64,000 nt of DNA from an uncultured Bacteroidia bacterium. GTDB lineage: Bacteria > Bacteroidota > Bacteroidia > Palsa-948. Under the pieces are notes generated by a model. That model had not been told where the DNA came from. It saw only the letters and a program-made list of their open reading frames with translations, and searched no databases. The stretch is from contig CAYZTB010000002.1 of assembly GCA_964481195.1 (NCBI GenBank), forward strand, positions 66,214 through 130,213. Reading direction: 5' to 3'. The translations under genes were made by a program, and so were the position numbers. This document shows, one piece after another, positions 11,164 to 63,272 of this stretch. How positions within the stretch are numbered: position 1 is the stretch's first letter; the number at the start of each line of letters is the position of its first letter.

Positions 11164-11166
11164 TCC

Positions 11167-13969: not shown

Positions 13970-13989
13970 GAATATTTGTAGTCAATCGA

Positions 13990-14150
13990 TTTTTGAGATT
14001 AATATCTCTTTGTGGATTCTTCGTGGGTTGCACCTTTGTGTTCTTTGTGGTTATGGCTTCGTTCTTCGCAATGTTTCCGAGCATGACTGTGAATAATACA
14101 GAAACCACAGAGTACACGAAGTAAATTTGACGCAAAGAAACGCAAAGAAT
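13990..14150. promoter_or_regulatory. Dyad cluster of CTTTGTG / CGCAAAG heptamer repeats in the argE–argH spacer.
   Basis: Direct repeats ctttgtgg ×3 (14011–14055) are followed by inverted copies (ccacagag, cgcaaagaaacgcaaagaa at 14110–14145). A 230-nt spacer is unusual inside an otherwise overlapping arg operon. Confidence 0.3.
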
Positions 14151-14199
14151 AACAAAAAGAACTACGTTACTAATATTTCATTCGTAAATTCGTATTCCA

Positions 14200-22136: not shown

Positions 22137-23123
22137 TTATTTCTGCGGCATTCCAAGCCCATACTCTTTTTTATTTTTTTGTTTGCGCATTGTTTTCCGT
22201 TCTTTTTTCGAAGGGCTAAATTTTCCGGTCTCATCTCCGCTTGACTGACTCATTTGCTTTTCCTCTTTTGAGCTGCGCTTGAAAAACTTCTTTTTTCCTT
22301 TGGTTTTATGTTTTTTTGTTTTGCCCTTTGCAGCGTTAGAAGAAGCATTCTTTTTTAATTTAACACGTGTTGCAAATGCATCATTTCCTCCAGCCTTAGA
22401 TTTTTTTAGTTTTCGCTCAGATCTTTTTTTAACTTTTTTCCCCTGTGCTTTATCGCCATAATCCATCGTGTAATCGTTACTAACTGTAAAGCCACCATCG
22501 CTTACATCTTTCCCTTTTACTCTTTTGTTTTTCTTTCCTTTTACTCTTTTTCCTTTTGCTCGATCACCATATTGTTTTGATTTTGAATTGGTAGCAAAAG
22601 CATCCGATGAGCCATCACTTTTAGTTTTATTTTTTACACGCTTGCTTCTTTTGCCTCTTGCTTTATCACCGTATTGTTTAGATTTTGAGTTGGTAGCAAA
22701 TGCATCCGATGAATTATCTCCTTTATCCTTGTTTTTTACACGCTTTGTTCTTTTCCCTTTGGATTTTTCTCCATACTGTTTGGATTTTCTTTTTGAAGCA
22801 AATGCATCGGAAGAGTTATCGCTTTGTATTTTATTCTTCTCCTTTTTTACTCTTTTGCCTTTTGATTTATCTCCGTAACTTTTAGATTTAGTTTTTGCAG
22901 AGAAGCCATCACTCGTCTTGCCTGATTTTTTTTGACGTGGTGCTTTAAAACTTTCTTTTTGCTTAGCCTCCTTACGCTTACTTTTCTTTCTTCCAAAAAA
23001 ACCACCTTCTGTATTAGTTTTATGTTTAGCAGGTTTATCGGCAGCAGGCTCCTGACCCCAAACATTTATGGAGGAGAGAATAAATAGAAATAATATAAAT
23101 AGAGACTGTATCCTTACCGGCAT
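22137..23123 (-). CDS. Secreted Lys-rich tandem-repeat protein of unknown function.
   Basis: Signal peptide MPVRIQSLFILFLFILSSINVWG. It has 4–5 tandem ~34-aa repeats SDAFATNSKSKQYGDKAKGKRVKRVKNKTKSDGS (~102-nt period at the DNA level) and very high K/R content. Confidence 0.55.
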   Translation of the reverse strand: MPVRIQSLFILFLFILSSINVWGQEPAADKPAKHKTNTEGGFFGRKKSKRKEAKQKESFKAPRQKKSGKTSDGFSAKTKSKSYGDKSKGKRVKKEKNKIQSDNSSDAFASKRKSKQYGEKSKGKRTKRVKNKDKGDNSSDAFATNSKSKQYGDKARGKRSKRVKNKTKSDGSSDAFATNSKSKQYGDRAKGKRVKGKKNKRVKGKDVSDGGFTVSNDYTMDYGDKAQGKKVKKRSERKLKKSKAGGNDAFATRVKLKKNASSNAAKGKTKKHKTKGKKKFFKRSSKEEKQMSQSSGDETGKFSPSKKERKTMRKQKNKKEYGLGMPQK

Positions 23124-33902: not shown

Positions 33903-35945
33903 ATGATTAACGCAGATTCTCTCATAAAATTCAATAAGAAAAAATATTCTGATGATATTTTACTTGGGCTTTACAAAGCGCTATTAAAACCTCGACTGAT
34001 AGAGGAAAAGATGCTGATTTTGCTTAGGCAGGGAAGGATTACTAAATGGTTTTCCGGCATTGGACAAGAAGCTAGTTCAGTAGGTGCAGCCATGGCGCTG
34101 GATAAGGACGAATATATTTTGCCTATGCACCGTAACCTGGGCACGTTTACAGTTCGAGGAATTCCACTTGAAAAACTATTTGCTCAGTTTCAAGGAAAAA
34201 AATCCGGATTTACAAAAGGGCGTGACCGCAGTTTCCATTTTGGAACGCAGGACTATAAGATTGTCGGCATGATTTCTCACCTAGGTCCACAAATGGGTGT
34301 TGCTGACGGGATTGCTTTAAGTCATTTATTGAAGAAAGAAAAAAAAGTTACGCTTGTTTATACCGGAGATGGAGGAGCATCGGAAGGAGATTTCCATGAG
34401 AGTATAAACGTAGCAGCAGTATGGAATTTGCCGGTGATTTTTGCCATTGAAAATAATGGATACGGGTTATCAACCCCATCTTCAGAACAATTTAAGTGTA
34501 AACAATTTATTGATAAAGCTATTGGTTATGGAATAGAGGCGCATCAGATAGACGGAAACAATGTGTTGGAAGTGTATGACACAATTCGCATTCTTTCAGA
34601 CTCCATCAGAAAAAATCCTAGACCTATTCTATTGGAGTGCATCACTTTCCGTATGCGTGGACACGAAGAGGCAAGCGGCACAAAATACATTGACCCAAAA
34701 CTTTTTGAAGAATGGGGAAAGAAAGACCCAATACTGAATTACGAGAAATTTTTGTTGGAAGAAAATATCCTTACTGAAGAAATAATTTCAGAATACAAAG
34801 CGGAAATAAAAAAAGAAATTGAAAAAGGAATTGAAGTTGCATTTGGTGAGGAGAATATTGTTGCTAATACAGAAGAAGAAGTTAGGGATTTGTATGCAAG
34901 CCCCTCTTCCGTCTCCCCCAAAGGGGGAAAAACCAACACCACGCTACACTCTCCCCTTGAGGGCGAGAAGGAGAGGGGTAGTAAGTCAATGCGCCTTATC
35001 GATTCCATCTCTGATGGACTACGTTTAGCAATGAGAAAACATGAAAATTTAGTTTTAATGGGACAGGACATTGCAGATTATGGAGGAGTATTTAAAATTA
35101 CGGATGGCTTTGTAAAAGAATTTGGAAAAGAAAGAGTGCGTAACACTCCACTTTGCGAGAGCGCAATTTTAGGCGCAGGGTTAGGTCTTTCAATCAACGG
35201 TATGAAGGCCATGGTGGAAATGCAGTTTGCCGATTTTGTGAGCGAAGGCATGACGCAGATTTGTAATAACCTAGCAAAATCACATTGGCGCTGGGGTCAA
35301 AATGCCGATGTGGTGGTGCGCATGCCAACGGGTGCAGGATCAGCAGCCGGACCTTTTCATTCGCAGAGTAACGAAGCATGGTTTTTTCATATTCCCGGAT
35401 TAAAAATTGTGTATCCCGCATTTCCGTTGGATGCTAAGGGATTGTTGCTCTCAGCCTTTGAAGATCCCAATCCTGTGATGTTTTTTGAGCATAAAATGTT
35501 GTACCGAGGAATGAGCCAAGAAGTGCCGGAGGATTATTTTACCATTCCGATTGGCAAAGCAAAAATTTTAAAAGAGGGAAACAATTGCACCATTATTACC
35601 TATGGAATGGGCGTGCATTGGGCTTTGGAAATAATAGAAAGAAATAAACTAACTGATGTAGAGCTGGTTGATTTACGCTCGCTAGCACCGTTGGATACTG
35701 AAACTATTTTTGAAAGTGCAAAGAAGACCGGTAAAGTAATTATTCTGCACGAAGATACTTTGACTGGCGGAATAGGAGGAGAAATATCGGCTTTAATTAC
35801 TGAAAACTGTTTTAACAGCCTAGATGCTCCTGTGATGCGTGAAGGCTCTTTAGATACTCCTGTTCCATTTACGGAAACTTTAGAAAAAAACTTTTTACCT
35901 AAAGAAAGGTTTGAGAAAAAACTTTTGCAATTGCTGGAGTACTAA
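33903..35945 (+). CDS. Fused alpha-ketoacid dehydrogenase E1 component alpha/beta (BCKDH/PDH-type).
   Basis: The N-terminal half is E1-alpha (TPP-binding GDG…N). The C-terminal half starts MRLIDSISDGLRLAMRKHENLVLMGQDIADYGGVF (E1-beta). A single 680-aa polypeptide. Confidence 0.85.
   Translation: MINADSLIKFNKKKYSDDILLGLYKALLKPRLIEEKMLILLRQGRITKWFSGIGQEASSVGAAMALDKDEYILPMHRNLGTFTVRGIPLEKLFAQFQGKKSGFTKGRDRSFHFGTQDYKIVGMISHLGPQMGVADGIALSHLLKKEKKVTLVYTGDGGASEGDFHESINVAAVWNLPVIFAIENNGYGLSTPSSEQFKCKQFIDKAIGYGIEAHQIDGNNVLEVYDTIRILSDSIRKNPRPILLECITFRMRGHEEASGTKYIDPKLFEEWGKKDPILNYEKFLLEENILTEEIISEYKAEIKKEIEKGIEVAFGEENIVANTEEEVRDLYASPSSVSPKGGKTNTTLHSPLEGEKERGSKSMRLIDSISDGLRLAMRKHENLVLMGQDIADYGGVFKITDGFVKEFGKERVRNTPLCESAILGAGLGLSINGMKAMVEMQFADFVSEGMTQICNNLAKSHWRWGQNADVVVRMPTGAGSAAGPFHSQSNEAWFFHIPGLKIVYPAFPLDAKGLLLSAFEDPNPVMFFEHKMLYRGMSQEVPEDYFTIPIGKAKILKEGNNCTIITYGMGVHWALEIIERNKLTDVELVDLRSLAPLDTETIFESAKKTGKVIILHEDTLTGGIGGEISALITENCFNSLDAPVMREGSLDTPVPFTETLEKNFLPKERFEKKLLQLLEY
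34899..34980. repeat. GC-rich palindromic mini-element (copy A), in frame in the E1 alpha–beta linker.
   Basis: cccctcttccgtctcccccaaagggggaaaaaccaacaccacgctacactctccccttgagggcgagaaggagagggg forms two hairpins (TCCCCC/GGGGGA and CTCTCC/GGAGAG). It is a sharp GC spike in AT-rich surroundings. It encodes SPSSVSPKGGKTNTTLHSPLEGEKERG. Confidence 0.6.
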
Positions 35946-35995: not shown

Positions 35996-37822
35996 TTATT
36001 TCAAAATAACTTTCCCTTTCCAAACTTCGTCACCTGCTTTTAAAATGATGTAGTACATTCCTGCAGGCTGAGAAGAAATATCAATTCTTTTTTCATAATT
36101 GCCAGACGTGTTTTCGGCTAATTCAAAAACAGACTGACCTAGACTATTTACGATTTCAAGTGTGCTGTTATGTGTTTCGGTCAGAGGGATATTAATGTTT
36201 AATATTCCGTTACTGGGATTTGGAAACACGTTTATATTATGTGTTAAGATCTGATCATGAATTCCGTTACTTGTTCCGCCAGGAATTGTGCCAGAAATAA
36301 AATATTGTCCCAGTGAACCAAAATCGGAATAACCTGTATTTAATGGAGAGCCATATCCAACGCCATCAATTTCTAAAAAGTAATTTCCAGCAGAGAGGCT
36401 TTGAGAAATTGTAACAGCAGTTGACAATACACCGGTAGGATCTACTTTTATTATTTCTGTTCCATTTACATCCAGTATTCTTGCCTGGATATCTAAATCA
36501 GGAACGCTGGCACTTCCAGGTTCGGTTTTTGCATTGATGGTTAAACTTACGGTGCCTCCGGTTGTTGTAAAAGAAAAAATATCTAAATCTGTTCTTCTTC
36601 CAATCACACCAAAATTAGAAGAGGAAGAAACCGTTCCTGTTCCCCCAATCACTAATGCAGTTGCTGTTGCTATAGTGCTGCCATGATCATCTACGCGGTA
36701 TGGTAGACGGTTACTAATGATAGTAAGATCATCTTGCTGATTATTTGCGCCTGTGTATTCGCCTTTGCTCCAATGTACAATAGGTCGGGAATATACTGCG
36801 CCCATGATTGGCCCCCAGCTTGCATGCCCGGCATAGTACTCTTGCGAAGCTGTTCCATCGTGGCTTAGGCCAAGTGTATGTCCGCATTCATGTGCGGCAG
36901 CTTCTTCGGCACTTTTAACACTACTGTTAAATACCCAACAAGGCTCTCCGCTTCCCCAAGAATTTAAATAAGCAACACCACCAGCACCGGGAGCAGCTGT
37001 ATTTGTTGGAGTAAATATAATTTTCATTCTTTGAGAGGTAGGTGCGCTATTAAATACTGCAACGTCCGTTGTAACATTTACATTAAAAGGACTGTAGTCC
37101 TCAGACATGCAAGTCCAGATAGTTGTGATGTTTGCATTTGAAAAGCTCGAAGGGGCAGCATTAATGTTACCCCAATTACTGTTGGTTACATTCTCCCCAT
37201 CAAAATCAAGGTAAATGGTACGTGCAGCACTGGGCAAACTGTTGAGTAAAGGGGCAGCAGTAGTTTCATTATTTTTTTGTGCAGATGCATTGTCAGGTAC
37301 TTCGTCTAAGTTAGTTTCTTTAGCTTGGTATTGGTTATAATCAAAACACATAACCTGATGAATATCAATTGGAGTAACAAAAACATCTCCTTTATAATTC
37401 GTAGAAATATCGAAAGCTTCTTTAGATTTTCTGAAAATCACTTTTCCTGACAAAGTGTTTCCTTCTTCATTTAGAAAAAAAGTAGCTTGCTCGTACCCAA
37501 CTACATTACCAAATACGTGCATCTTACCATCTCTATTGGAGTTATTACTAACGATAATCCACGCAGTTTTATCGGCAGCTAATTTAATGGAGTGCTGTTG
37601 TTTGTTGCTTGGATTTATTTTAGAAAAACTTTTGATGAGCTCTTTAGCTGAGCCTAGATATACAGCATCAGATTTTTCATTTCCAAAGGAAAGGTTAAAC
37701 GCCAAGCAAAAGGAAAGCGACACTAAAATTCCTCGGAAAATTTTTGTAGTGTAAAATGTAACCATAGAAAAAAAGTTTAGTGTTGGTTTGAAAGAAGGGT
37801 AAAGGTACATATACGATTTCAA
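35996..37822 (-). CDS. Metzincin-type zinc metalloprotease (M43/pappalysin-like) with a T9SS type-A CTD.
   Basis: HECGHTLGLSHDG matches HExxHxxGxxH(D). The C-terminal …TLEIVNSLGQSVFEL…GMYYIILKAGDEVWKGKVILK is a Por secretion tail. Confidence 0.7.
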   Translation of the reverse strand: MKSYMYLYPSFKPTLNFFSMVTFYTTKIFRGILVSLSFCLAFNLSFGNEKSDAVYLGSAKELIKSFSKINPSNKQQHSIKLAADKTAWIIVSNNSNRDGKMHVFGNVVGYEQATFFLNEEGNTLSGKVIFRKSKEAFDISTNYKGDVFVTPIDIHQVMCFDYNQYQAKETNLDEVPDNASAQKNNETTAAPLLNSLPSAARTIYLDFDGENVTNSNWGNINAAPSSFSNANITTIWTCMSEDYSPFNVNVTTDVAVFNSAPTSQRMKIIFTPTNTAAPGAGGVAYLNSWGSGEPCWVFNSSVKSAEEAAAHECGHTLGLSHDGTASQEYYAGHASWGPIMGAVYSRPIVHWSKGEYTGANNQQDDLTIISNRLPYRVDDHGSTIATATALVIGGTGTVSSSSNFGVIGRRTDLDIFSFTTTGGTVSLTINAKTEPGSASVPDLDIQARILDVNGTEIIKVDPTGVLSTAVTISQSLSAGNYFLEIDGVGYGSPLNTGYSDFGSLGQYFISGTIPGGTSNGIHDQILTHNINVFPNPSNGILNINIPLTETHNSTLEIVNSLGQSVFELAENTSGNYEKRIDISSQPAGMYYIILKAGDEVWKGKVILK

Positions 37823-37876: not shown

Positions 37877-38815
37877 CTATTCTGTTTCAGGCACAGGAAC
37901 TGGGTCTGTAGGGGCTTTAAACCGTAAACCTATCATTAGCTCATGTGTTCCGTTATTATAATTTTTTAAGTTAGAAGTAGTTACATCGTAAGAATAACCA
38001 AATGTCAGGTTTTCTTTATAGGTATATCCAACCAGAATTGCCATAGCATCTTTCGTACGGAATGTAGTGCCCGCCCATGCTTTATTTTTATAAATAACCC
38101 GTGCACCTAAATCAACTTGAGCCGGAGTAGGTGCAACCATTTTGAAAAGCAGGGATGGTTCAAGAGCAAACTCATCTGTTAAAAATAATTTGTAGCCTGC
38201 CATTCCATAAAAATGCGTTGCAAGTTTACCTGTGGGTTTAGGGTTATCAAAAAGATTTAGCTTAGCAGGAAATATTTGAGGAACATAGCCCCCCACCCAC
38301 CAATTTCCTGTTCCATTTGATTTAGGTAAATTATATAAGTAGAAAGAGGTGCCTAAGTCTGCAACAACTTTTGATTGATAACCATTTGCAAAGACATAAT
38401 CGCCTGTATTATCCAGCGTTAGTTTTGTAGCATCCACAGCAAATTGCACCGCACCTGCAGAAAGGGAAAGGGATAACTTTATTTCTTCATTAATTTTTAC
38501 ATGGTATGCATAGGATCCACTGAATCCCATTCTTCGTGTTGGCCCTGTAACATCGGTAAATAAATACCCGCCAACTCCCATGTTTTTATTCTTAATGGGC
38601 CCTTGCATGCTTAAAGCATAGGTGCGTGGGGCGTCTATAATACCAATCCACTGAAGTCGATTTGCAGACACAGCGTCAAAAAATGGTCTGCTGCCTGCTA
38701 CGGCTGGATTTTGAAAATAATCGTTCAGCATATATTGCGAGAACAGCGGTAGCTGCTGAGCAAACATACCGATAGACAAAAGTCCCAAGCAAGTAGCTGA
38801 GATTATTTTTTTCAT
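37877..38815 (-). CDS. sprF: Type IX secretion system membrane protein, PorP/SprF family.
   Basis: Signal peptide followed by QQLPLFSQYMLNDYFQNPAVAG, the hallmark PorP/SprF N-terminus. ~312-aa beta-barrel. Lies immediately downstream of a type-B-CTD giant protein. Confidence 0.8.
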   Translation of the reverse strand: MKKIISATCLGLLSIGMFAQQLPLFSQYMLNDYFQNPAVAGSRPFFDAVSANRLQWIGIIDAPRTYALSMQGPIKNKNMGVGGYLFTDVTGPTRRMGFSGSYAYHVKINEEIKLSLSLSAGAVQFAVDATKLTLDNTGDYVFANGYQSKVVADLGTSFYLYNLPKSNGTGNWWVGGYVPQIFPAKLNLFDNPKPTGKLATHFYGMAGYKLFLTDEFALEPSLLFKMVAPTPAQVDLGARVIYKNKAWAGTTFRTKDAMAILVGYTYKENLTFGYSYDVTTSNLKNYNNGTHELMIGLRFKAPTDPVPVPETE

Positions 38816-38880: not shown

Positions 38881-41800
38881 TTATCTAAGTATCGTAATAG
38901 GACCCGTTATTGGATCGGGCTGCATTACAGACTTCAAATTAATAACGTAATAATATGTTCCTACTGGCAACTCCTTGCCATTGTACTTAGCATTCCATTT
39001 ATTGTTGGGGTAATCGGTAGTGCTAAACAATACTTCGCCCCATCTGTTGTAAACTTCTACTAATGCTCCAGGAAAAGCTTCAATATTTGGAATTTCCCAT
39101 ATATCATTTATTCCATCACCGTTTGGCGAAAGTCCATCATTTGGTTTTACAATTCGGACAATAGTAATCGTTACAAAATCGACCGAGGTACATCCGTTTA
39201 CATCTGTAACTAATAGTGTGTAAGTTGTGGTAGTGGTTGGATTAGCTGCTGGGTTTGCAATTGTAGTAGAGCTAAGTCCAGCTGAAGGAGACCATAAATA
39301 ATTACCACTTCCGCTACCATTAAGTACTACAGTACCTGTGGTCAGTATTGTTACATCTGAACCTGCATTAGCAACTGGACCTGTATTCACTGTCACAAAT
39401 ACTGAATCAGTATCAGAACAAATTCCGTTAGAAACAATTAATGCATACGTTGATGAAACGGCAGGTGAAACGGAAGTGCAAATGACTGTATTTGTTAATG
39501 TCCACGTAGGCAGTAAATACCAGTTATATGTTGCGCCATTTAAACTATTTGTACCACAAAGTAGAACGCTGCTTCCTGCACAAAGTGCGGTATCGTTACC
39601 AGCAGCTGAAACAGGCGGAGGCAACACAGTTACTGAAACGGAATCAGTATCCGTACAAGTGCCATTGAATCCAATAATGCCATATGAAGTAGTTCCTACA
39701 GGAGGTGATACGGAAATACATGAGCCGGTAGAAATAGGAGACCAAGCGGGTAATTGATACCACATATATCCATTGGCTCCAGCAGCGCAAATAGACGCGC
39801 TTGTGCCGGCACAAATTGTTGTATTGCTCACAACCAATATAGGGTAGTTGTTTACTATTACAGCTACCGTATCAGTATCAGAACAAATGCCGTTAGTAGC
39901 AATTAAAGCATAATTGTTTATCCCAGCAAAAGGAGATACAGAAATAGACCCCGTTGCTCCTAGCGATGTCCAAGCAGGAAGCTGGTACCAACCTAAGGTG
40001 ATTGCATTTACGCTAGAGCTGGTAAGAGTTGCTGTTCCACCTAAACAGAAAGTAGTGTCAGCACCTGCATTTGCAATAACAGTTGTTATCACTCCAATCG
40101 ACATGGAGTATGTTGCAGTACAAGCATTAGCATCTGTAATTGTAACAGAATATATTCCTGCACAAAGCCCAGACACATCTTGTGTTGTTTGCCCGCCTGG
40201 AACCCATGTGTATGAATATGGAGTAGTACCACCAGTTGGAGTAATGTCAATTAATCCATTGCAAGTATTGTTGCAACTAGCATTTGTACTTACAAAAGTT
40301 GAAGTTAATATTGCAGGATTTGTAAGCGTAATTGTATTTGAACCCAAACAATTATTTGCATCACTTAATTGTAAGGAGTATGTGCCAGAACATAAGCCAG
40401 TAACGGAAGTGGTTGTTTGTCCACCTGGCATCCACAAATAGGTGTAAGGTGCTGTGCCGCCCGTAGGTGCTGCAGAAATAATTCCATTACATGCGTTGTT
40501 GCAAAGTGGGTTTGTTCCGGTAATATTTAACGCTAAAGCTGCAGGTTGTGAAATTGAAATTGTATTTGTATGCGTACACCCTACTGCATCTATAACCGAT
40601 ATGGTATAATTACCAGCACATAAACCCGTTGCAGTTGAAGTTGATTGTCCACCTGTCCATGTGTAAGTGTATGGTGATGAGCCGCCTATCATTGACACCG
40701 ATGCTGTTCCATCGCATGCAGCATTACAAGAGTTATTTGTAGAGGTTATTGTAGAAGTAAGTACTGTATTTTGACCTATGGAAATTGTAGTTGTTAAAGA
40801 GCAGTTATTTGCGTCAGAAAGAGTTAAAGTATAGTTGCCTGCACATTGTGCGGAAATAGACGAAGTTGTAGCGCCTCCCGGTAACCAGCTGTAAGTATAT
40901 GCTCCAGTTCCGCCAGTAGCAGCAGTTGTTATACCGCCATCGCAAATTCCAAAGCAAGTTGCATTAGTTGCTACTGCATTGGGTACCAGTTGGGCGGGGC
41001 CAATTATGTTTATGCTTTTAATTGTAGTGCAACCGTTAATATCAGTCACATGCGCAAAATATTGGTTAGGACATAAACCCGAAACACTTTGCGTAGTTTG
41101 TGAACCTGCAGGGAACGTCCAAGCATAAACCCAAGGAGGACCATTGCCAGTCGAAGAGACTATAGTTCCAGTTCCGTCACATGCACCAAAACATGTTACG
41201 CTAGTGCTGCTAACGGTTACAAATGGTCCTGTACTGTTGCTAACGGCATTCGTGTCAAGGCTAATACAACCATTGGCATCCATCACAGTGTCAATATAAA
41301 CTCCAGCACATAATCCGGTTATAGCAGCAGTAGTAGCTCCTGTTCCCCAAAAGAAAGAGTATGGACTAGTACCACCATTTCCCGCAACCGTAATACTGCC
41401 GTTACATACTAAACAAGTTGCAGCAGATATAGAAGAAGATTGTGTAAGTATTGGTGGTGAAGTAATGGTTATTGCTTGAGACGCGGAACAATTATTTGCA
41501 TCTGTAACTACCAATGTGTAAGTGCCAGCACATAGACCAGTTGTTATTGCCGAAGTGCCTCCATTACTCCACTGAAATGTATAGGTGCCCGTTCCTCCTA
41601 ACGGAGAAGAAGTGGCAGTACCATCACAAGTATAATTACATGTAGTTTGAGTAAATGTGATATTTGCTTGTATTAAACTTTGGGAAGAAATTGTAAATGG
41701 AGTTGGAGAAGTACAAGCATTGGCATCCGATACGGTTAGTGTATAGTTGCCAGCACAAAGTCCAGTAACTGCAGAAGTTGTGTATCCGCCCGGATTCCAC

Positions 41801-44800
41801 AAGTAGGTGTAACTACCAGTACCGCCACTTAAATTTACGGAAGCCGATCCATCACATCCACCAAAACAGCTTGCGTTGGTTGTTGTAAGTGTAGGAGAAA
41901 TTGCAGTAGGCTGAGTGATGGAAACTGTTTGAGAAGAAGTACATCCATTAGCATCTGTAACAGTTCCAAAATAATTACCTACGCATAATGCAGATATTGT
42001 AGAAGTGGTTTGTCCACCTGCCAACCAAGAATAACTATAAGCGGTTGAACCGCCTGATGCAGATAATGTTGCAGTTCCATTACATATGGAGTTACAAGTA
42101 ATGTTTGATGATGCTACAGTAGTAGTTAAAGCAACAGGTTGAGTAATTGATACAGTAGAAGTAGCAGTACACCCTTTTTGATCTGTTACAGTCAATGAGT
42201 AGTTTCCTGGAGATAATCCAACGATAGTAGGGAATGAAGATCCATTACTCCATGAATAAGTATATGGTGTAGTGCCGCCCGATACTGTTGCGTTGGCACT
42301 GCCATTTCCAGACCCGTTACAAGTTACGTTTGTTGCAGTTATAGAAACACTTAAGAGCGCAGGTTGGGTTACAGTTAAAGCTAAAGTATCATCACACCCA
42401 GAAGCGTCTGCTAAAATAACGGAGTATGTTCCGGCAGTAAGTCCGCTAATACAAGAAGTAGACTGACCACTAGACCAAGTAAATGTGTAAGGAGTGTTGC
42501 CGCCAGCAGGCGATAAACATATGCTGCCATTATTCCCTGAATTACATGAAACATTTGAAATAGTGGGGTTAGCGACTAACTGTGGTGGATTAGAAAGTAC
42601 AACAGTTGTGAAAGTTGGACAAGGCACATTGTCATCTACTTGAAGAATGTATGTTCCAGCGCACAGACCAGTAGCAGCAGATGTAGTTTGTCCACTAGGA
42701 GTCCATAAATAAGTGAAAGGTGAATTACCTGCAGCAGAAACTGCAATTGCTCCATCACAACCCGCGTTACAAAGTGGATCTAATGCTGAAATAACTGTAA
42801 GTGTTGGACCAGTAAGTGAGCCTAATGCTATAGGGAAAACAGCTGTACATCCCGATGCATCAGCAATGGTAACTGTATAGATTCCTGCAACAAGTCCAGT
42901 AATACAAGAAGTAGTTTCTAGACCTGGAGCCCAAGAATATGTGTAAGGCGATACGCCACCGGATGCACTAGCACATATTGCACCATTATTGCTACCGCAA
43001 GTTGTAAGTGTTGTAGAAGGATTATTGCTGATGGTTGGAATTATTCCAACAAGAACAGTATTGGTAGAGGTGCAATTATTTGCATCGGTTATTAATACAG
43101 AATAATTTCCAGCACAAAGGCCTGTTGCTGTAGTTGTATTTTGAGAAGGGAATCCAGACCAGGCATAGGTTAAGGTTCCTGTTCCTCCAGATGTAGCCAC
43201 GGTTGCTGTACCATTACAAATGCCGCATGATGCAGCAGTACTGCTAATTGTGTTTGTAAGAGGAGTTGGCGAGGAAAATGAAACCGTTTTAGTAGCTGTG
43301 CATCCCGAATTATCAGTAACCGTTACAGAATAAACGCCTGCACATAATCCAGTTGCAGTAGCGTTTGTTTGTCCGCCTGTCCAAGAATATGTATACGGAT
43401 TTGCTCCACCTGACGGTGTAGCTGTTGCGGATGCATCACATGAGCCAGCGCAAGAAACAGAGGGGCCAGAGGATGACAGGGTAACATTTATTTTAGAAGT
43501 AACATTTACAGTAAGTGAGTTTGTGCAATTATTTGCATCAGTAATTGTTACAGAATAAACACCAACGCATAGTCCAGTTGCAGTAGAAGTTGTTTGTCCG
43601 CCCGGAGACCAAGAGTAACTATAGGGTGTAGTCCCACCTGTTGAAATAATACTTGCGCTACCTGTGCAAAGATTACAACTGGAAGTTGAAGTAGAGATAA
43701 AAGATAAAAGAGCACTTGGCTGAGTGATATTTAAATTATTTATATTGGAACAACCTTTAGAATCAGTAACCATTACACCAATAGCCCCTTGACACAATCC
43801 AGTAATTGTTTGTGTTGTAATACCACCACCCCATAAGTAAGTATAAGGTGGAGTGCCTCCTGTAGGCGCAGAAGTAGCAGAACCATCGCATGCACCGGAG
43901 CAGGATACATTATTAATTACAGAAGCATTTGCTGCTACAGCTGAAGGCTGAGTAAGCGTAACAGTTTTTACTACAAAGCATCCTTTGCTATCTGTTACAG
44001 TTATTGTATAAAATCCTGCACATTGTGAAGTAATTGCAGATGTAGTTTGTCCGCCAGGTAACCAAGCATAGGTGTAAGCTCCTGTTCCTCCAGAAGCAGT
44101 TATTGTAACAGAACCAGTACAACTTCCAAAACAAGGTGGGTTAGTAGAAGAAAGAGTAGACGTTAAAACAGTGGGTGCAGTAAATGTAACAGATGTAGTT
44201 GCGGTGCATCCGTTTGCATCAGTAGCTGTTAAAGAATACGCTCCTGCACAAAGTCCAGTTATTGAAGCAGTAGTAGCGCCAGTAGACCAAGCATACGAAT
44301 AGGTTGGAGTTCCGCCATTAAGATTTATAAGTATTGACCCGTCACAATCGCCATTACATTTTAATGGATTGGGTGTGGCTGATCCGATGGAAGCAGTAAA
44401 TAAATTTGGTTGCGTAACATTGATAGTTCCAGTAGCGGTACATCCTGCGGAACCGGTTATAAGAACCGAATAACTTCCAGCACTTAATCCCGTAGCAGTA
44501 GAAGTAGTTTGTCCGCCAGGAGTCCATAAATAAGTGTACGGAGATACTCCTCCTGTTGGCGATGATGTAGCGCTGCCATTAGATAAGCCATTACAAGTAA
44601 CTGATGTGCTACTTAAGTTTGGAAGAATTGGAATTGGAGGAGATACTGTAATAGTTGCGGTAGCTAAACAGTTTTTTGAATCTCTAACGGTAATTGTGTA
44701 ATTGTTAGGACATAATCCAGTAGCTGTTGATGTTGTTTTTCCTCCTGGCGCCCATAAATAGGTGTATGGAGCAGTACCTCCAGATACTGTTGCAGTTGCA

Positions 44801-46209
44801 GTACCATCACAAGAGCCAGCACAAGTTTCATTAGTTTTTGTAGGAGTAATTGCAAGAACTGCTGGTTGAGTGAGAGTTATGGAACTTACTTTAGTACAAC
44901 CGTTTTGATCTGAAATAGTTACAGAATACGTATTGTTACAAAGATTAGAAACCGATGAAGAAGTAGCACCTCCTGGAGTCCACAAATAAGTGTAAGGAGA
45001 AACACCTCCGGCAGCATTTGCATTTGCTGTTCCATCGCATTGATTAAAACAATTAATATTATTTCCAGTTGGAATGGATGTTATAGCAGAAGGTTGAGTT
45101 AAGGTAACCGTAGCAGTGGTAACACAATTATTAGCATCTCTAAGAGTAAGGGTATAGCTTCCCGCACACATTCCTGTAACTGCAGATGAAGTATATCCTC
45201 CAGGTGCCCAAGCATAGGTATATGCACCCATTCCTCCAGATGCAGTAGCGGTTACCGATCCGGTGCAAACACTATTGCAAAGTAAATTAGATCCTGTAAC
45301 CGTTACCGTTAACAAAGCTGGTTGAGAAATAGTAGTTATATAGGTGGTGATACAAATTTTTGTATCGCGAATCGTACATGTATAACTCCCCGGACATAAA
45401 TTAGATATTGAAGAAGTCGTAGCTCCGCCAGGACTCCAAGAGTAAGTATATGGAACATTGCCGCCTGTAGGTGCTACAGATGCAGTGCCGTTACATAACC
45501 CAAAGCAAGTAATTGAAGTAGTTGTCCCATTCGATACAAGTGGAGCAGGTTGCCCAATGTTTACATTTCTAACAGCCGTACATCCATTGGCATCTGTTAT
45601 TGTAACAACATAAAGTTGAGCGCAAAGTCCGGTAGCTAATGTTGTTGTTTGAATAGGAGCAGTATTCCATGAATAAGTGTAGGGCGAAGTTCCTCCAGTG
45701 GGAGTTGCAGTTGCTGAACCATCACATAATCCAAAACAAGAACTTACAGGGGCGGGCGGTGTAATATTTACAATAAGTGAGGCAGGATTTACAAGAGCAA
45801 TAGAGCCACTGCAATAACCACCAATAGTAGCATCCCAAACCTGAATTAGGTAAGTATTGCCTACTAAACCAGTTATAGATGCAGTTGTTGCAGAGCCACC
45901 TGGCGGAGACCATAAATAAGTGTAGGGTGTGGTCCCACCACTTACTGAAACTGAGGCAGATCCATTTGCAGCCCCATTACATAAAGGATCTGTGCCACTA
46001 ATAACTAGAGTTAATGTTCCACAAGTAACTGTTGTAGTAGCAGCAAGTGGAGTTGGATCTGCAACAAATTCTTTTTGAGCAAAGACACCTACTACACTAC
46101 AAGAAAAAAACAGTAAGAGTAAAAATCTTTTCAAACTGGAAATTTTATTTTGTATCATCTGTTTACGAACAGAATGCAAAGATGTTACATTTTTTATAAA
46201 AAAACGCAT
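38881..46209 (-). CDS. SprB-repeat giant cell-surface adhesin with a gliding-motility-associated (T9SS type B) C-terminal domain.
   Basis: ~26 SprB repeats (C.G.CDGSA…GGT.PYTY.W.PGG), then 4 repeats of a second type (…TFCLGGTATL…YQLPAW…), then a C-terminal …PNDGLSPNGDGINDIWEIPNIEAFPGALVEVYNRWGEVLF… (CHU_C / type-B CTD). The likely start is MIQNK at 46158. Confidence 0.85.
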   Translation of the reverse strand: MRFFIKNVTSLHSVRKQMIQNKISSLKRFLLLLFFSCSVVGVFAQKEFVADPTPLAATTTVTCGTLTLVISGTDPLCNGAANGSASVSVSGGTTPYTYLWSPPGGSATTASITGLVGNTYLIQVWDATIGGYCSGSIALVNPASLIVNITPPAPVSSCFGLCDGSATATPTGGTSPYTYSWNTAPIQTTTLATGLCAQLYVVTITDANGCTAVRNVNIGQPAPLVSNGTTTSITCFGLCNGTASVAPTGGNVPYTYSWSPGGATTSSISNLCPGSYTCTIRDTKICITTYITTISQPALLTVTVTGSNLLCNSVCTGSVTATASGGMGAYTYAWAPGGYTSSAVTGMCAGSYTLTLRDANNCVTTATVTLTQPSAITSIPTGNNINCFNQCDGTANANAAGGVSPYTYLWTPGGATSSSVSNLCNNTYSVTISDQNGCTKVSSITLTQPAVLAITPTKTNETCAGSCDGTATATVSGGTAPYTYLWAPGGKTTSTATGLCPNNYTITVRDSKNCLATATITVSPPIPILPNLSSTSVTCNGLSNGSATSSPTGGVSPYTYLWTPGGQTTSTATGLSAGSYSVLITGSAGCTATGTINVTQPNLFTASIGSATPNPLKCNGDCDGSILINLNGGTPTYSYAWSTGATTASITGLCAGAYSLTATDANGCTATTSVTFTAPTVLTSTLSSTNPPCFGSCTGSVTITASGGTGAYTYAWLPGGQTTSAITSQCAGFYTITVTDSKGCFVVKTVTLTQPSAVAANASVINNVSCSGACDGSATSAPTGGTPPYTYLWGGGITTQTITGLCQGAIGVMVTDSKGCSNINNLNITQPSALLSFISTSTSSCNLCTGSASIISTGGTTPYSYSWSPGGQTTSTATGLCVGVYSVTITDANNCTNSLTVNVTSKINVTLSSSGPSVSCAGSCDASATATPSGGANPYTYSWTGGQTNATATGLCAGVYSVTVTDNSGCTATKTVSFSSPTPLTNTISSTAASCGICNGTATVATSGGTGTLTYAWSGFPSQNTTTATGLCAGNYSVLITDANNCTSTNTVLVGIIPTISNNPSTTLTTCGSNNGAICASASGGVSPYTYSWAPGLETTSCITGLVAGIYTVTIADASGCTAVFPIALGSLTGPTLTVISALDPLCNAGCDGAIAVSAAGNSPFTYLWTPSGQTTSAATGLCAGTYILQVDDNVPCPTFTTVVLSNPPQLVANPTISNVSCNSGNNGSICLSPAGGNTPYTFTWSSGQSTSCISGLTAGTYSVILADASGCDDTLALTVTQPALLSVSITATNVTCNGSGNGSANATVSGGTTPYTYSWSNGSSFPTIVGLSPGNYSLTVTDQKGCTATSTVSITQPVALTTTVASSNITCNSICNGTATLSASGGSTAYSYSWLAGGQTTSTISALCVGNYFGTVTDANGCTSSQTVSITQPTAISPTLTTTNASCFGGCDGSASVNLSGGTGSYTYLWNPGGYTTSAVTGLCAGNYTLTVSDANACTSPTPFTISSQSLIQANITFTQTTCNYTCDGTATSSPLGGTGTYTFQWSNGGTSAITTGLCAGTYTLVVTDANNCSASQAITITSPPILTQSSSISAATCLVCNGSITVAGNGGTSPYSFFWGTGATTAAITGLCAGVYIDTVMDANGCISLDTNAVSNSTGPFVTVSSTSVTCFGACDGTGTIVSSTGNGPPWVYAWTFPAGSQTTQSVSGLCPNQYFAHVTDINGCTTIKSINIIGPAQLVPNAVATNATCFGICDGGITTAATGGTGAYTYSWLPGGATTSSISAQCAGNYTLTLSDANNCSLTTTISIGQNTVLTSTITSTNNSCNAACDGTASVSMIGGSSPYTYTWTGGQSTSTATGLCAGNYTISVIDAVGCTHTNTISISQPAALALNITGTNPLCNNACNGIISAAPTGGTAPYTYLWMPGGQTTTSVTGLCSGTYSLQLSDANNCLGSNTITLTNPAILTSTFVSTNASCNNTCNGLIDITPTGGTTPYSYTWVPGGQTTQDVSGLCAGIYSVTITDANACTATYSMSIGVITTVIANAGADTTFCLGGTATLTSSSVNAITLGWYQLPAWTSLGATGSISVSPFAGINNYALIATNGICSDTDTVAVIVNNYPILVVSNTTICAGTSASICAAGANGYMWYQLPAWSPISTGSCISVSPPVGTTSYGIIGFNGTCTDTDSVSVTVLPPPVSAAGNDTALCAGSSVLLCGTNSLNGATYNWYLLPTWTLTNTVICTSVSPAVSSTYALIVSNGICSDTDSVFVTVNTGPVANAGSDVTILTTGTVVLNGSGSGNYLWSPSAGLSSTTIANPAANPTTTTTYTLLVTDVNGCTSVDFVTITIVRIVKPNDGLSPNGDGINDIWEIPNIEAFPGALVEVYNRWGEVLFSTTDYPNNKWNAKYNGKELPVGTYYYVINLKSVMQPDPITGPITILR

Positions 46210-46608: not shown

Positions 46609-47631
46609 TTACCAGCCAAGTATGTATGCAAACATTAACGGTGCAACAATACTTGCATCTGATTCAATTACAAATTTAGGAGTGGTAGTATTTAATTTTC
46701 CCCATGTAATTTTTTCATTGGGTACTGCTCCAGAATAAGAACCATAACTTGTTGTTGAATCTGATATTTGACAGAAGTAAGACCAGAAAGGCGTGTCTTT
46801 GCGTTTTAAATCTTGAATCAGCATCGGCACAACACAAATTGGGAAGTCTCCCGCAATGCCTCCTCCAATCTGGTAGAATCCAATTCCTTTTCCTTTGCAA
46901 TTATTAGTATACCAATCGGCAAGAAAAGTCATGTACTCAATTCCTGATCTTACAGTAGTTGCTTTTAAATTTCCAGTAAGGCAATACGAAGCAAATACGT
47001 TTCCAAGCGTAGAATCTTCCCAGCCTGGGACAATAAGAGGAATATTTTTTTCTGCAGCAGCTAACACCCAAGAATCTTTGGGGTCGATTTGATAATATTT
47101 TTTTAATTCACCATCCAAAAGTAGTTTATAGAAAAACTCATGAGGTAAATAACGTTCGCCTTTATTGTCTGCTTCTTTCCACAATTTAAATATATGTTTT
47201 TCGATTCTGCGCATCGCTTCTTCTTCGGGTATACAGGTATCTGTTACTCTATTGAAGCCTTCTTCAAAAAGTGTCCATTCTTCAGCAGGACTTAAATCTC
47301 GGTAATTGGGAATTCTTTTATAATGGTCATGCGCAACAAGGTTAAAAACATCTTCTTCTAAGTTTGCACCAGTACAGGAGATGATCTGAACTTTATTATT
47401 ACGTATCATTTCTGCTAAGGAAACACCCAGCTCGGCAGTACTCATTGCTCCAGCAAGTGTAATCATCATTTTACCGCCTTCTGCTAAATGCGTGTTGTAA
47501 GCTTTAGAAGCATCCACAACCGTTGCAGCATTAAAATGCCTATAATGTTTTTCAATGAAAGCGGAGATTGCATTTTTGGTTTCACCTTGCTTTACAGCAA
47601 CAGCATCTCCGGATTTAGTTATTGTGCTCAT
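46609..47631 (-). CDS. Deoxyhypusine synthase-family protein (homospermidine-synthase-like).
   Basis: From MSTITKSG…: a DHS-like NAD-binding fold (…ITLAGAMSTAELG…ISCTGANLEEDVFN…). The first 21 codons of the ORF track are an upstream extension. Confidence 0.75.
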   Translation of the reverse strand: MSTITKSGDAVAVKQGETKNAISAFIEKHYRHFNAATVVDASKAYNTHLAEGGKMMITLAGAMSTAELGVSLAEMIRNNKVQIISCTGANLEEDVFNLVAHDHYKRIPNYRDLSPAEEWTLFEEGFNRVTDTCIPEEEAMRRIEKHIFKLWKEADNKGERYLPHEFFYKLLLDGELKKYYQIDPKDSWVLAAAEKNIPLIVPGWEDSTLGNVFASYCLTGNLKATTVRSGIEYMTFLADWYTNNCKGKGIGFYQIGGGIAGDFPICVVPMLIQDLKRKDTPFWSYFCQISDSTTSYGSYSGAVPNEKITWGKLNTTTPKFVIESDASIVAPLMFAYILGW

Positions 47632-47752
47632 AGTTGGTATTTTTAGGTATCTAAAAAAGAGCACAAAAATATTTATTCTTTCTGAAACAAGCAAAAAAAT
47701 ATGAAAAACCTTTCAAGTTTTTTTCAAGATAAAAAGCAGAAGTAATAGGATG

Positions 47753-49747: not shown

Positions 49748-52700
49748 TTATACCGGCTTCTTGATGCTGATTTTACTACCCGCATTCCAGGTTTTAAATT
49801 CATTGGTGTAGTATAAGTAAGCAGATGATGCTTCCGATTCATATTCGCCAGGGATATCAGCCTTAAGATCTAAGTTTATGATTTTTGACTCATTAGGTCC
49901 CATGCCCCTGTAATACAATACCAAGTTACTTCCAATCACTTCATAGAAGTCAAACATGTTTTTTTCTTGCAATTCTTTTAGCTGCCAAGGCTGTAAAGAA
50001 AGACCGGCAGGAATTCCAATGATAGCAATTGGACTAGAGATACCATCGTTACTTTTGTTTTTTATTTCAGCAGTTAATCGAATGGTTTCTCCTTGAAAAA
50101 TAACTTTGTTGCTTAGCCTAGTTTTTAAATCAAGCTGACATTCAGCTTCATTAGATGGAAGCGAAGTGTTCCAGCTTACTGCAACTGCATGAGGAAGTGG
50201 ATTTTTTGTTCCAACATATTTTACCTTGAGTGTATGCTTACCTTCTTTTACAAATTGCTCTAGGCTATCAAGTACAATCGCTTCCTTTTCTCCCGCCTTA
50301 TAGGATTGCTCAGCAACTTTTTTTCCATCTACAAAAAATTCTACTTTGCCATCTTCCGGTGTAGCTTTATTTGCTTTTGCATATTCTGTCATGGCTTTTA
50401 AAGCAAGTACCGTTCCTTGTGTGTTTCCAAAAGAGCCATACCCATTTCTGTTTTTTACCAAGTACGCTATCGCTTTATTAGTTGCTATGCTGTTTTTATT
50501 TGGAGATTTTAACATAGCCATAATAGCTAAAGAAGTAGTTTCGATTTTTAATGAGTTACCTGTAGAATGGGTAATTGAATGTGTAGTGCCGTCAAAGCTT
50601 CCATCGTTATTTTGTTTGGATAATAGTTCACCCAACGCTTTCTCGGCATTTTTATCCTGCATAACATATAGCGCATTAACGCTCATTGCTAGTTGATAAG
50701 GATCTTTGTTTTTCATAGCAGTTAAATAAGATTCTTCAGCCTCTTTTTTTAACTGGCTACCATAACCAGCTTCGGCAAGTGCATACACAATATATCCGTT
50801 CATCACCTCATCACTAATGCTCCCAAAGTCATGAAGCGCATACGAGTTTCTGTTAAACTTGCCTTTGCCATCTCTTTGAGATAAGATCCAAGTTGCAGTA
50901 CGGTCAATCATTTTTTGATCAACCCCTTCGTAAACTTTTTTCAAATCATTGAATTGCATTAACCCATAGGCTGTTAGTCCTTGGTGACCAGGCGCTTTGC
51001 CAAACCACTCGTATCCTTTTTGAGAAGTCTCAAAAGTTACTAAGCGTTTGTAGCCTCTGTCTAACATATCTCCAGCATAAGCCAATAGCTTTTCATCTTT
51101 AGATTCGGAAGTTTTTAAATAATCCATCACCATGGCATTCGGATAGCTGCTCATGGATGTTTGCTCAAAGCATCCTCCCGGCTCTCGCAATATTCCATCT
51201 GCTCCGGTTAGTAAATCGCTAACTACGGATGGGAATGCTGTTAGTTTTACTTTGATTGAACCTTTAACTACGTTACGCATATCCACTTCATAAACCGATT
51301 CTCCTTTATCGCCAGAGAAAGAAGCAGTAATAGGAAACCCTTTTGAAACAACTTTTATGTTTTGAGAAAAAGCATCTTTCATTCCACAAGCTTTGAAAGA
51401 AACTTCAAGGTTGCCTTCCGTTATTTCATTTTTCACTTTGTAGTCTAGAAATAGTGTTGTTGCTTTTCCGGGAGCTAGCGTATGTAGTTTTGCAATGGTT
51501 GAAACTAATTCCAATCCAGCCGGAGCAGTAACTGTTAACAAACCGCTTACGGATGCAGAGGTATTATTTTTTAAAGTAAGTGGAATAGAAACCAAGTCTT
51601 CAGTTACAACTTCTGAAGGAAATTTTGTGGTTAGAGAAAAAGGCATTTGAGTGAAAAAAGTTTTTTCAGTACGACCAATACTTCCATCATTGCCAATACC
51701 TTCTGCAGTAGCTCTGAAAGAAGTAATATCGTCCGAATTGTAAAAGGAAACTTCTGCCTTTCCGGAGTTGTTCACCTGAACACTAGGATTCCAATATACG
51801 GTTGATCTAAAATCTGTTCTTTGCTCCGGATATTCATCTTTTTTATATACAGGTGCAGCAAACTGTTTGGCTCTGTAATAAACTACTGCCTTTGCCTGTT
51901 TATTTACTTCTGCAGCTTGAAACTCGTCTCTAAATTCTTTTCTAGCCATTCGATCATCGGCCATGGATATTTTTCCTTTGTTTTTAGATTCGTCTTGATT
52001 CAATTTTGCTACTTCATCTTCTTTTTTTTCATTTGATTTTTTTACTGCTTTATTATCCGAGGAAGGCACTTTGTCTTTTTTCAATGCTACTAACTCTGCA
52101 ACTTGTATTTCATTTCTCACAAGCTTTTCCATTGGAGCATCAAAGTCCACTTCAGCATCATTTTGTACTCTATTGCCAGCAGCTGCTTGAGGAAAATTCC
52201 CATTCCCCCATGCACTAGACTTGGTGCTCATAGTATTGTATCGATTGTTGTTTAATGGATATAAGTAGTACGACAGATTTTGGCCGTAGTCGTTAACATT
52301 ATATTGTTGTTGATTATAGTTTGATGCATTTACCAATATATGAGTAGGGTCTGACAGATCAATTTTTTTCAAAGAGAATGCTCCTTTATCATCAGTCTCA
52401 ATGGTTGCGCCATCGGTACTCACTTTTAATTTAGCATTTGGAATTGGCTTTCCAGTGTATGCATCTAATACTATTCCGGATACAATCGATTTTTCTGCCG
52501 CATAGGTAATTTTTGGAAGATCGTCAGACATTATTTTTTCCCACGAAAATTTCCTCCATCCGCTCGTAAGCATTAGGTAGTCTAACGCTTGATTTGATTT
52601 AGGCTCCTTGCTGTCAAAATAAAAATTTGGCTCTTCAATTTTTTCTTTGATATCATATTCTAACAACATTTTAGAAAGTATATTCCCTTGTTTATCATCA

Positions 52701-63211: not shown

Positions 63212-63262
63212 CACCCCCTCCCGAGCTTCGCTCCCTGCCTCCGGCAGTCCCGAAGGGGGAGA
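63212..63262. repeat. GC-rich palindromic mini-element (copy B) in the hemA–hemC spacer.
   Basis: caccccctcccgagcttcgctccctgcctccggcagtcccgaagggggagag shares the gcctccggca…agggg(g)agag core with copy C. Confidence 0.55.
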
Positions 63263-63272
63263 GATTATTCCA

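Follow-up and report, generated by a model that had tools for sequence, protein, structure and literature searches.

A short, often intragenic palindromic repeat with a triplex-type layout in the E1 dehydrogenase and hemC genes of an uncultured Bacteroidota lineage

The question raised by this locus is why a GC-rich palindromic island should sit in frame at the alpha/beta junction of a fused 2-oxoacid dehydrogenase E1 gene in an AT-rich genome. The gene lies on contig CAYZTB010000002.1 of an uncultured Bacteroidia bacterium, of which a stretch of 64 kb, called the window here, was analysed. The island consists of two units of a short repeat family, which has a defined architecture, is restricted to one lineage, includes in-frame copies within genes and is patchily present among close relatives. 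This family has a triplex-type layout, is often intragenic, resembles the repetitive extragenic palindromes (REPs) and is new, although related to known REPs, Rickettsia palindromic elements (RPEs) and triplex repeats. We consider it likely that it is a selfish or neutral repeat family of ~33-nt units in one uncultured Flavobacteriales-like Bacteroidota lineage, which is present as an inverted pair in the E1 linker and is copied in trans. An initial sequence-only reading of the window had already proposed a selfish palindromic element that colonises coding regions like those of Rickettsia, and this proposal is supported by the recurrent in-frame copies that are absent from orthologues.

The insert in the E1 gene encodes the peptide SPSSVSPKGGKTNTTLHSPLEGEKERGS and stands out in its base composition, with 61.3% GC over 80 nt (34900-34979) as compared to 40.2% for the E1 gene and 37.6% for the 64-kb window; across this stretch a GC content of at least 60% is reached by just 0.1% of 60-nt segments. 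The sequence-only reading gave 60-65% GC for an island of ~80 nt, which agrees with these values, whereas its figure of ~35% for the host gene was slightly low. The insert folds strongly on either strand, with a minimum free energy (MFE) of -40.7 kcal/mol as compared to -27.8 +/- 3.3 kcal/mol for shuffled sequences (z = -3.9), none of the 200 shuffles being as low. Of the two hairpins described earlier, TCCCCC-AAA-GGGGGA is indeed present (34914-34928), but the proposed pairing CTCTCC...GGAGAG is not, as GGAGAGGGG pairs with CCCCTCTTCC (34901-10) in the outer stem of the MFE fold, and the second local hairpin is CTCTCCC-cttga-GGGCGAG (34949-34967). In the E1 gene the open reading frame (ORF) is uninterrupted and the insert is in frame at the alpha/beta junction, as had been claimed, between the E1_dh and Transket_pyr domains, which together with Transketolase_C are the Pfam domains recorded for the identical protein P0001. 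In an AlphaFold2 model of moderate quality (mean predicted local distance difference test score, pLDDT, of 70.8), the insert falls between the last helix of the alpha domain and the first strand of the beta domain, and residues 325-357 are coil with pLDDT < 50.

Local misassembly is possible at GC-rich hairpins, which could point to a metagenome assembly or sequencing artefact. The chance of this is vanishingly small, because the identical 680-aa protein is found on at least five contigs obtained from different metagenomic samples with different assemblers (JGI, Logan), and an ENA contig (L108) is identical to the window at 728 of 728 nt over the hemC overlap. The source metagenomes include JGI 3300020213 and 3300015360 and SRR6448209-12. 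An intein, an intron, a bypass element, a CRISPR repeat and a terminator were also considered as candidates and dropped in view of the length of 3n, the open frame, the lack of a T-run and the lack of associated genes. In Rfam no score near any gathering threshold was obtained in the E1-insert or the hemC region, and a generic repeat finder applied to the window was dominated by SprB-like repeats and missed the palindromic elements. The remaining palindromic islands of the E1-insert kind in the window all lie within 63184-64000.

Comparison with other copies revealed that the insert is not a single element of ~80 nt, as first proposed, but a head-to-head dimer of two ~33-nt units, A1 and A2, which are inverted relative to each other (Table 1). 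Each unit follows the same plan, namely a pyrimidine-only arm, a loop of 3-5 nt, a complementary purine-only arm, a turn of 1-4 nt and a tail rich in G, which is the mirror image of the purine arm. Because the hairpin core is identical on both strands, the orientation of a unit is set by the G-rich tail alone, and 10 of 12 such hairpins in the close lineage have this tail 3' of the purine arm or show the reverse complement of that arrangement, with 0 in the control arrangement. The outer tails of A1 and A2 pair together and form the long outer stem of the fold, and the stretch that separates A1 from A2 may be left over from the original linker, to judge from AAACCAAAGG in the related locus L008. 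An alignment of seven units from five distinct sites has a mean column identity of 75%, and a covariance model (R1), for which seven units were used, gives 39-44 bits for the copies on which it was trained, A1 (39.5 bits) and A2 (44 bits) being among these training sequences; A1 and A2 are also matched in the triplex-layout scan given below (34901-34930 and 34949-34977). Among 16 aligned units, the tail sequence GTAG is seen in A2 only, and CGTC abutting the stem is seen only in A1 and in the unit at a second E1 site (site 2) of the relative L007.

In the units, tail and purine arm stand in a mirror relationship. When the tail is compared with its arm read in reverse (without complementing) over 12 arm types, 90 of 99 positions agree, an A in the arm being counted as matched by a tail A or T. 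After shuffling of the tails the value is 68.8 +/- 2.8, and when tails are swapped among units it is 76.7 +/- 2.8, with none of 5000 trials reaching 90, and matching as a direct repeat is weaker (76/99). Judged from sequence, the layout of arm and mirror tail corresponds in geometry to an intrastrand triplex of the purine-motif type (G*G-C, A*A-T, T*A-T). A relaxed scan for this layout gave 17 matches in 145 kb of the close lineage, as compared to 6 across distant loci totalling 1.04 Mb and 0-1 in shuffled sequences. Under strict criteria (7 perfect triads, or at least 8 triads with one mismatch) no match was obtained in the window, with 0 in shuffles. In two relatives, matches were obtained even under strict criteria, namely for unit 1 of the L007 linker (10 triads, 0 mismatches) and for L006 (8, 0), and these two as well as the complete hemC unit D (8 triads, 1 mismatch) agree with the ITxF rules for such motifs.

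Further copies in the window are found in the hemA-hemC region. The 17-nt core CACTCTCCCCTTGAGGG, with up to 3 mismatches, has 3 matches in the window as compared to 0.06 expected, and it recurs at 63323-63339. A core common to the E1 insert, 63212-63358 and 63978-64000 had been noticed earlier; the sharing holds, except that 63212-63358 in fact contains two units, C and B. Unit C lies between the hemA stop codon (63209-63211) and the hemC start codon (ATG, 63273), and its frame-2 translation, SRASLPASGSPEGGE, matches the E1 linker peptide SRALLPASGSPEGGE of the sister sequence P0003. Unit B falls into an N-terminal extension of hemC, all homologues of which begin ~26 residues downstream of the window hemC start. 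B would have to be translated, because the ATG at 63273 is the sole in-frame ATG/GTG/TTG before the conserved IGSRGS motif, and it is matched by R1 on both strands because a C-rich 5' flank is present too. Unit D, when completed from L108, is an insert of 33 nt (AAC CCC TCT CCA GCT CTC CCC AAA AGG GAG AGA, encoding NPSPALPKRER) and constitutes a clean 11-aa insertion relative to 18 hemC homologues, with a model match of 41.4 bits in L108. Both hemC inserts are absent from hemC homologues, which have 295-298 aa. Four of the five window units (A1, A2, B and D) are located in coding sequence, with C being intergenic. Over 39 nt, A2 and B share 77% identity, and the common orientation and frame that had been ascribed to the E1 and hemC copies apply to these two units only, as A1, C and D are inverted; even A2 and B share the codon phase at their 3' ends only, because of a 1-nt indel between them. 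The encoded peptides (SPLEGEKERGS and LPLGESGEKGG), which had been called near-identical, are alike in kind only.

Some additional features of hemC were observed. The gene (window 63273-64000; L108 869-2101) extends beyond the usual 295-298 aa into a region like the N-terminal part of HemD (uroporphyrinogen-III synthase), and the relative P0124 has a weak PF02602 match, which suggests a hemC-hemD fusion in this lineage, as far as can be read from these sequences. The hemC copy of L108 has an aberrant end and is possibly truncated. At a third hemC site, the hemC relative P0133 contains a 45-aa insertion rich in Pro, Gly, Ser and Arg (alignment A2, columns 316-360; PPVRQTGGRPLPKGGESQRTGTPVLSDNEGVLSGGSPSSSGRAGVGL), which at the level of the protein sequence is probably a cluster of similar elements.

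Table 1. Positions of the host genes and repeat units in the window
Feature	Position	Strand	Basis and remarks
Fused 2-oxoacid dehydrogenase E1 alpha/beta gene, 680 aa	33903-35945	+	ORF listing, translation, Pfam
Entire GC-rich insert, head-to-head dimer of units with tails outward, 84 nt	34899-34982	+	GC profile, fold, translation, absence from orthologues
Predicted E1 tryptic peptide			TNTTLHSPLEGEK
Unit A1	34899-34930	-	Minus strand: TTTCCCCC-ttt-GGGGGAGA-cgg-AAGAGGGG
Spacer A1/A2, 16 nt	34931-34946	+	AAACCAACACCACGCT; codon-by-codon linker comparison
Unit A2	34947-34982	+	CTCTCCC-cttga-GGGCGAG-aag-GAGAGGGG-TAGT
Unit C, longer variant with nested small hairpin TGCC-tcc-GGCA, hemA-hemC spacer	63212-63267	-	Weak model match, 13.7 bits
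hemC (hydroxymethylbilane synthase), second host gene, continuing past the window end	63273-64000	+	Translation, homologues, Pfam Porphobil_deam
Unit B, hemC N-terminal extension (SSSASGTLPLGESGEKGG)	63305-63359	+	Model matches of 42.3 bits (+) and 19 bits (-)
Unit D, mid-hemC, truncated by the window end	63978-64000	-	Completed from L108

The orthologues place these insertions within a narrow lineage. The interval from RGHEEASG to LMGQD spans 125 aa in the window, 113 aa in clade members that carry no insert and 110-111 aa in nearly all of the ~60 distant Bacteroidota E1 orthologues compared. The E1 linker of the distant orthologues shows neither a palindrome nor a peak in GC. Relatives from metagenomes, which among the matches listed were mostly orthologues at 62-71% identity, served as outgroup. 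The insert is also missing in L111, P0008, P0012 and P0017, which are equally close relatives, and the empty linker of L111 has 60 nt, 43% GC and no palindrome. With R1, additional copies were found at 18-25 bits in L006 (from assembly GCA_964545535.1) and L110 (from GCA_016213435.1), while no score exceeded 15.2 bits in the distant loci (1.04 Mb) and none in L111 was significant. An ancestral flexible linker that became rich in GC, Pro, Gly and Glu via peptide selection or compositional drift, without any insertion, would accord with the unconserved linker of ~20 aa that all orthologues have at this place and with the baseline length and somewhat similar composition of the L006 and L008 linkers. 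This is nevertheless extremely unlikely, given the constant interval of the distant orthologues, which lack the insert and its GC-rich sequence altogether, and the possibility raised by the sequence-only reading that such a linker might be ancestral is largely refuted by the presence of the same DNA units in an intergenic spacer, in hemC and in the gene for aspartyl-tRNA synthetase (AspRS). Moreover, peptide selection leaves arm complementarity and the mirror tail unexplained. Since the distant orthologues lack the element and sister sequences differ, the inserts are, by sequence comparison, recurrent insertions specific to the lineage and not a linker inherited from an ancestor.

Among the close relatives, whose E1 shares 82-89% protein identity and 74-80% DNA identity with that of the window, units occur at various positions. 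Besides the two hemC sites and the hemA-hemC spacer of the window, copies are present in relatives at two E1 sites other than the linker, in AspRS and in intergenic spacers (L008 and L110), and the expectation that the element should recur beyond the window was hence borne out. The site-2 insert of L007 E1 is ~85% identical to both A1 and A2, though located elsewhere in the gene, and in the L007 linker an inverted pair is arranged as in the window and at the same position, with a 3' unit that resembles B. A head-to-head dimer with tails outside is found in this L007 linker as well as at site 2 of L110. The E1 linker of L109 carries a near-identical C sequence in frame, in which the inner hairpin TGCC/GGCA is changed on both sides to AACC/GGTT. 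When compared with PDB 6wom, the AspRS of L110 contains 11 additional residues, TPNPSPKGEGS, as a clean insertion. When the E1 genes that guided the sampling are set aside, about one third of the units are in coding sequence.

On a neighbour-joining E1 tree calculated with the linker columns excluded, the insert lengths at the linker and at the two further sites vary between sister sequences, and these differences imply many gains or losses. A positional function under selection, for example a pause in translation or an mRNA structure at the alpha/beta domain boundary, or a protein-binding site in DNA or RNA, could account for the inverted pair that L007 has at the same position, for the covariation of arms and tails and for the strong fold on both strands. 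However, it is rendered very improbable by the equally close relatives without any insert, by the sister sequence P0003, whose linker carries a unit different from that of the window, and by the copies in unrelated genes and spacers that have no common context. As a separate observation, the E1 linker of L110 (10001-12079) contains three tandem TTCCCCGA copies followed by a purine-rich stretch, and, judged by sequence, these repeats may represent a decayed or slipped element.

If the family is copied in trans, as we favour, the element would have entered the E1 linker after the split of this lineage from relatives with a plain 60-nt linker, and would act there as selfish or neutral DNA. It would be transcribed and translated with the host gene, adding a disordered stretch of Pro, Ser, Gly, Glu and Lys to the protein. 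Copying to new sites would proceed in trans via a folded single-stranded form, either by an enzyme of REP/RAYT type that works on the folded strand, in the manner proposed for RAYTs and REPs, or by repair, template switching or gene conversion at replication forks stalled by the structure. Trans-acting copying from a donor is favoured because the 33-nt units are 75-90% alike at unrelated sites while unconstrained positions are saturated, and both routes are compatible with purine-rich insertion sites at which host sequence is partly replaced.

Alternatively, without any transposition, hairpins might arise and be remodelled in place at purine-rich stretches that code for Glu, Lys and Gly, by template switching, slippage or gene conversion. 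The three sites examined are indeed purine-rich (E1 site 2, AAAGAGGGAAAC; hemC, AGG followed at the junction by GAGAAGGAC; AspRS flank, GGAGAAGGGAGCGAAAAC), L006 and L109 differ by the replacement of one arm beside a common CCCGAAGGGGAAGG block, the inserts replace host sequence and are not simply added to it, and published triplex motifs are tied to local instability with no known transposase (PMC4666352). However, template switching cannot make mirror repeats, and units of 33 nt that are 75-90% alike at unrelated loci, in genomes of ~76% identity, need copying from a donor, and an origin in place is hence considered unlikely.

Copying in trans has several results against it as well. No transposase gene is present among the ORFs of the 64-kb window, and no filled and empty alleles of one site at high identity were found among the sequences compared. 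The exact pattern GCCTCCGGCASTCN{4,12}GGGGAGAG, which is common to B and C, has 12 chance-consistent matches in 185,579 species genomes, none of them in Bacteroidota and all in high-GC Actinobacteria, Proteobacteria and similar taxa. Several of the close loci were picked for an insert-bearing E1, by which the density of units appears inflated. In L006 and L008 the linker is of baseline length, 60 nt, and nonetheless palindromic, with a somewhat similar composition, so that replacement or change in situ must happen too. Finally, the complete window units A1, A2 and B, with 7 triads and 1 mismatch each, fail the strict triplex criteria, and the triplex is for this reason treated as a significant layout and not as a proven structure; its formation in vivo is something we infer from the sequence of the arms and tails.

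Every stop codon contains a T plus a purine, and arms that are all-pyrimidine or all-purine are therefore free of stop codons on either strand, whatever the frame. Of the 6 frames, 5-6 are open in single units and 4 in the 84-nt dimer, and the clean single-unit inserts (hemC D and L110 AspRS) have 33 nt, corresponding to 11 codons. Tolerance would be limited to copies in linkers, surface loops and termini. A codon-phase preference was considered as well, since all reverse intragenic units read ..CCC-TCT.. and forward units mostly GAG-ARG-GGT, and was set aside, as about three independent insertions per orientation are too few. A tentative extension, for which the odds are rather against us, is that the element is a structure-defined, triplex-capable mobile repeat adapted to genes, with arms open in six frames and inserts of 11 codons, which prefers purine-rich loops and linkers coding for Glu, Lys and Gly and generates disordered segments in housekeeping proteins.

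Several known families share part of these properties. REPs are palindromes of 20-40 bp that occur singly or as head-to-head dimers, mostly in intergenic regions, with some copies in frame, tRNA synthetases included, and intragenic REP dimers encode 20-30 aa, which linkers and loops are presumed to accommodate (PMC3733652). Intragenic REPs of the GTAG/CGTC type (Di Nocera et al. 2013) are known from Opitutus, Thauera, Xanthomonas and Rickettsia (RPE-4 and RPE-6), and the CGTC families have stems of 8-9 bp starting with A-T pairs, a loop of 4-5 nt and a CCA tail (PMC3733652). The units described here are likewise imperfect palindromes of ~33 nt, found at 5 window sites and at more than 10 in relatives, and they likewise form a head-to-head dimer with a 16-nt spacer. 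However, they have no consistent terminal GTAG/CGTC tag, their C/T versus G/A stems lack the leading A-T pairs, a G-rich mirror tail of 7-10 nt replaces CCA, the host is a low-GC member of Bacteroidota, and no RAYT, the IS200/IS605-type transposase associated with REPs, is present among the ORFs of the 64-kb window. As to RPEs, the RPE-1 type (Ogata et al. 2000) has ~100-150 bp and encodes a conserved peptide in one frame (as given in PMC10969869). RPEs are selfish palindromes and the present family probably so, and both add peptides in frame to unrelated housekeeping genes at positions compatible with folding, patchily distributed among related species, with in-frame inserts absent from orthologues, here in E1, at two hemC sites and in AspRS. 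Unlike RPE-1, the present units have ~33 nt (84 nt as a dimer), are GC-rich in an AT-rich genome, are translated in both orientations and belong to another phylum.

A match in layout is provided by BoxC/TMECO, the class II intrastrand triplex motifs of E. coli, which form a triplex in vitro and are reported to be always intergenic (Hoyne and Maher 2000; Holder et al. 2015, PMC4666352). ITxF class II motifs consist of a pyrimidine stem, a loop of 1-6 nt, a purine stem, a further loop of 1-6 nt and an antiparallel third stem of G, A and T, with stems of 6-15 nt and one mismatched triad permitted only above 7 nt (PMC4666352). The units share with BoxC/TMECO the C/T stem, the loop of 3-6 nt, the G/A stem, the second loop of ~3 nt and the antiparallel second G-rich stem within ~33-37 nt, as well as frequent inverted pairs and numbers that vary greatly among close relatives, BoxC/TMECO being linked to local rearrangement. 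They differ in that the TMECO consensus CCCTCNCCC...GGGNGAGGG...GGGNGAGGG is not matched, the stems here being CTCTCCC/GGGGAGAG/GAGAGGGG, that the window stems are shorter and contain a mismatch, and that four of the five window units are predicted to be translated.

MITEs, the miniature inverted-repeat transposable elements, are defined here by terminal inverted repeats plus a target-site duplication, a length of 70-300 bp and derivation from an insertion sequence (IS). The ends of the E1 dimer are inverted, no flank duplication is evident and no parent IS is seen, and lone 33-nt units occur too. GC clusters and double-hairpin elements of fungal mitochondria are short GC-rich mobile palindromes in AT-rich genomes, some of them in frame as in yeast var1. 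They belong to an organelle, form an unrelated sequence family and lack a triplex-type tail, so that the likeness is one of analogy only. The sequence-only reading was not aware of such an element in Bacteroidetes, and in the literature none was found described for Bacteroidota, apart from CGTC REPs that are mentioned without details (PMC3733652), nor does a 2024 MITE review give a Bacteroidota case (PMC10969869); the comparison with Rickettsia alone was too narrow, as intragenic short palindromes are known outside that genus (PMC3733652).

If true, these findings would extend selfish palindromes in essential genes, for which Rickettsia and a small number of other bacteria are the main examples, to free-living low-GC Bacteroidota, and would join the literature on intragenic REPs and RPEs with that on intrastrand-triplex repeats, reported to be strictly intergenic in E. 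coli. Arms of pure pyrimidine and pure purine offer a simple reason at the level of sequence for the survival of an element in ORFs. Such inserts lengthen proteins, create spurious low-complexity "domains" and can mislead the annotation and alignment of metagenome-assembled genomes.

Hairpins of a similar type were also noticed outside this lineage. In viral contigs the exact pattern given above has no match, and the looser pattern CTCTCCC..GGGGAGAG..GAGAAGG is found in 7 contigs of 49-75% GC, six of them at 60% or above, which means that the motif type is not lineage-specific. In the viral or prophage contigs L021-L027, a hairpin of the same layout, CCCTCTCCC-loop-GGGAGAGGG, is followed by a G/A-rich tail. 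This motif class is widespread outside Bacteroidota, and phages could carry the motif. In spacers of distant Bacteroidota, a simpler CCCCC/GGGGG hairpin is followed by a GGGGGA(T)GAGG tail (L036 20584-20608, L081 884-986, L053 3833-3865), with an inverted pair in L081 and one copy in frame in the E1 linker of L053 (SPLSSGEGPGLRS), so related families may be wider in the phylum.

The neighbourhood of the E1 gene has some peculiarities of its own. Directly downstream of E1 is a cluster of gliding and type IX secretion system cargo genes, comprising a Por_Secre_tail metalloprotease-like gene (35996-37822), PorP/SprF (37877-38815) and, adjoining it, a giant cell-surface protein of 2442 aa (38881-46209, minus strand) with ~30 repeats of 225-228 nt (~76 aa), SprB repeats and a CHU_C C-terminal domain. 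Also in this neighbourhood, both on the minus strand, are a deoxyhypusine-synthase-like gene (46609-47694; PF01916) and a bacterial alpha-2-macroglobulin-like protein of 1478 aa (49748-54184). An ORF of 328 aa at 22137-23123 (minus strand) appears to encode a secreted protein that is extremely rich in Lys, Ser and Gly, has no Pfam match and contains four tandem repeats of 102 nt (34 aa; 22523-22930) of the type ...SDAFATNSKSKQYGDKxKGKRxKRVKNK.... At 7860-15537 (plus strand), a contiguous arginine-biosynthesis cluster, with no repeat elements detected within it, contains genes for argininosuccinate synthase, a semialdehyde dehydrogenase, a class III aminotransferase, a carbamoyltransferase, an amino-acid kinase, an M20 deacylase and a lyase.

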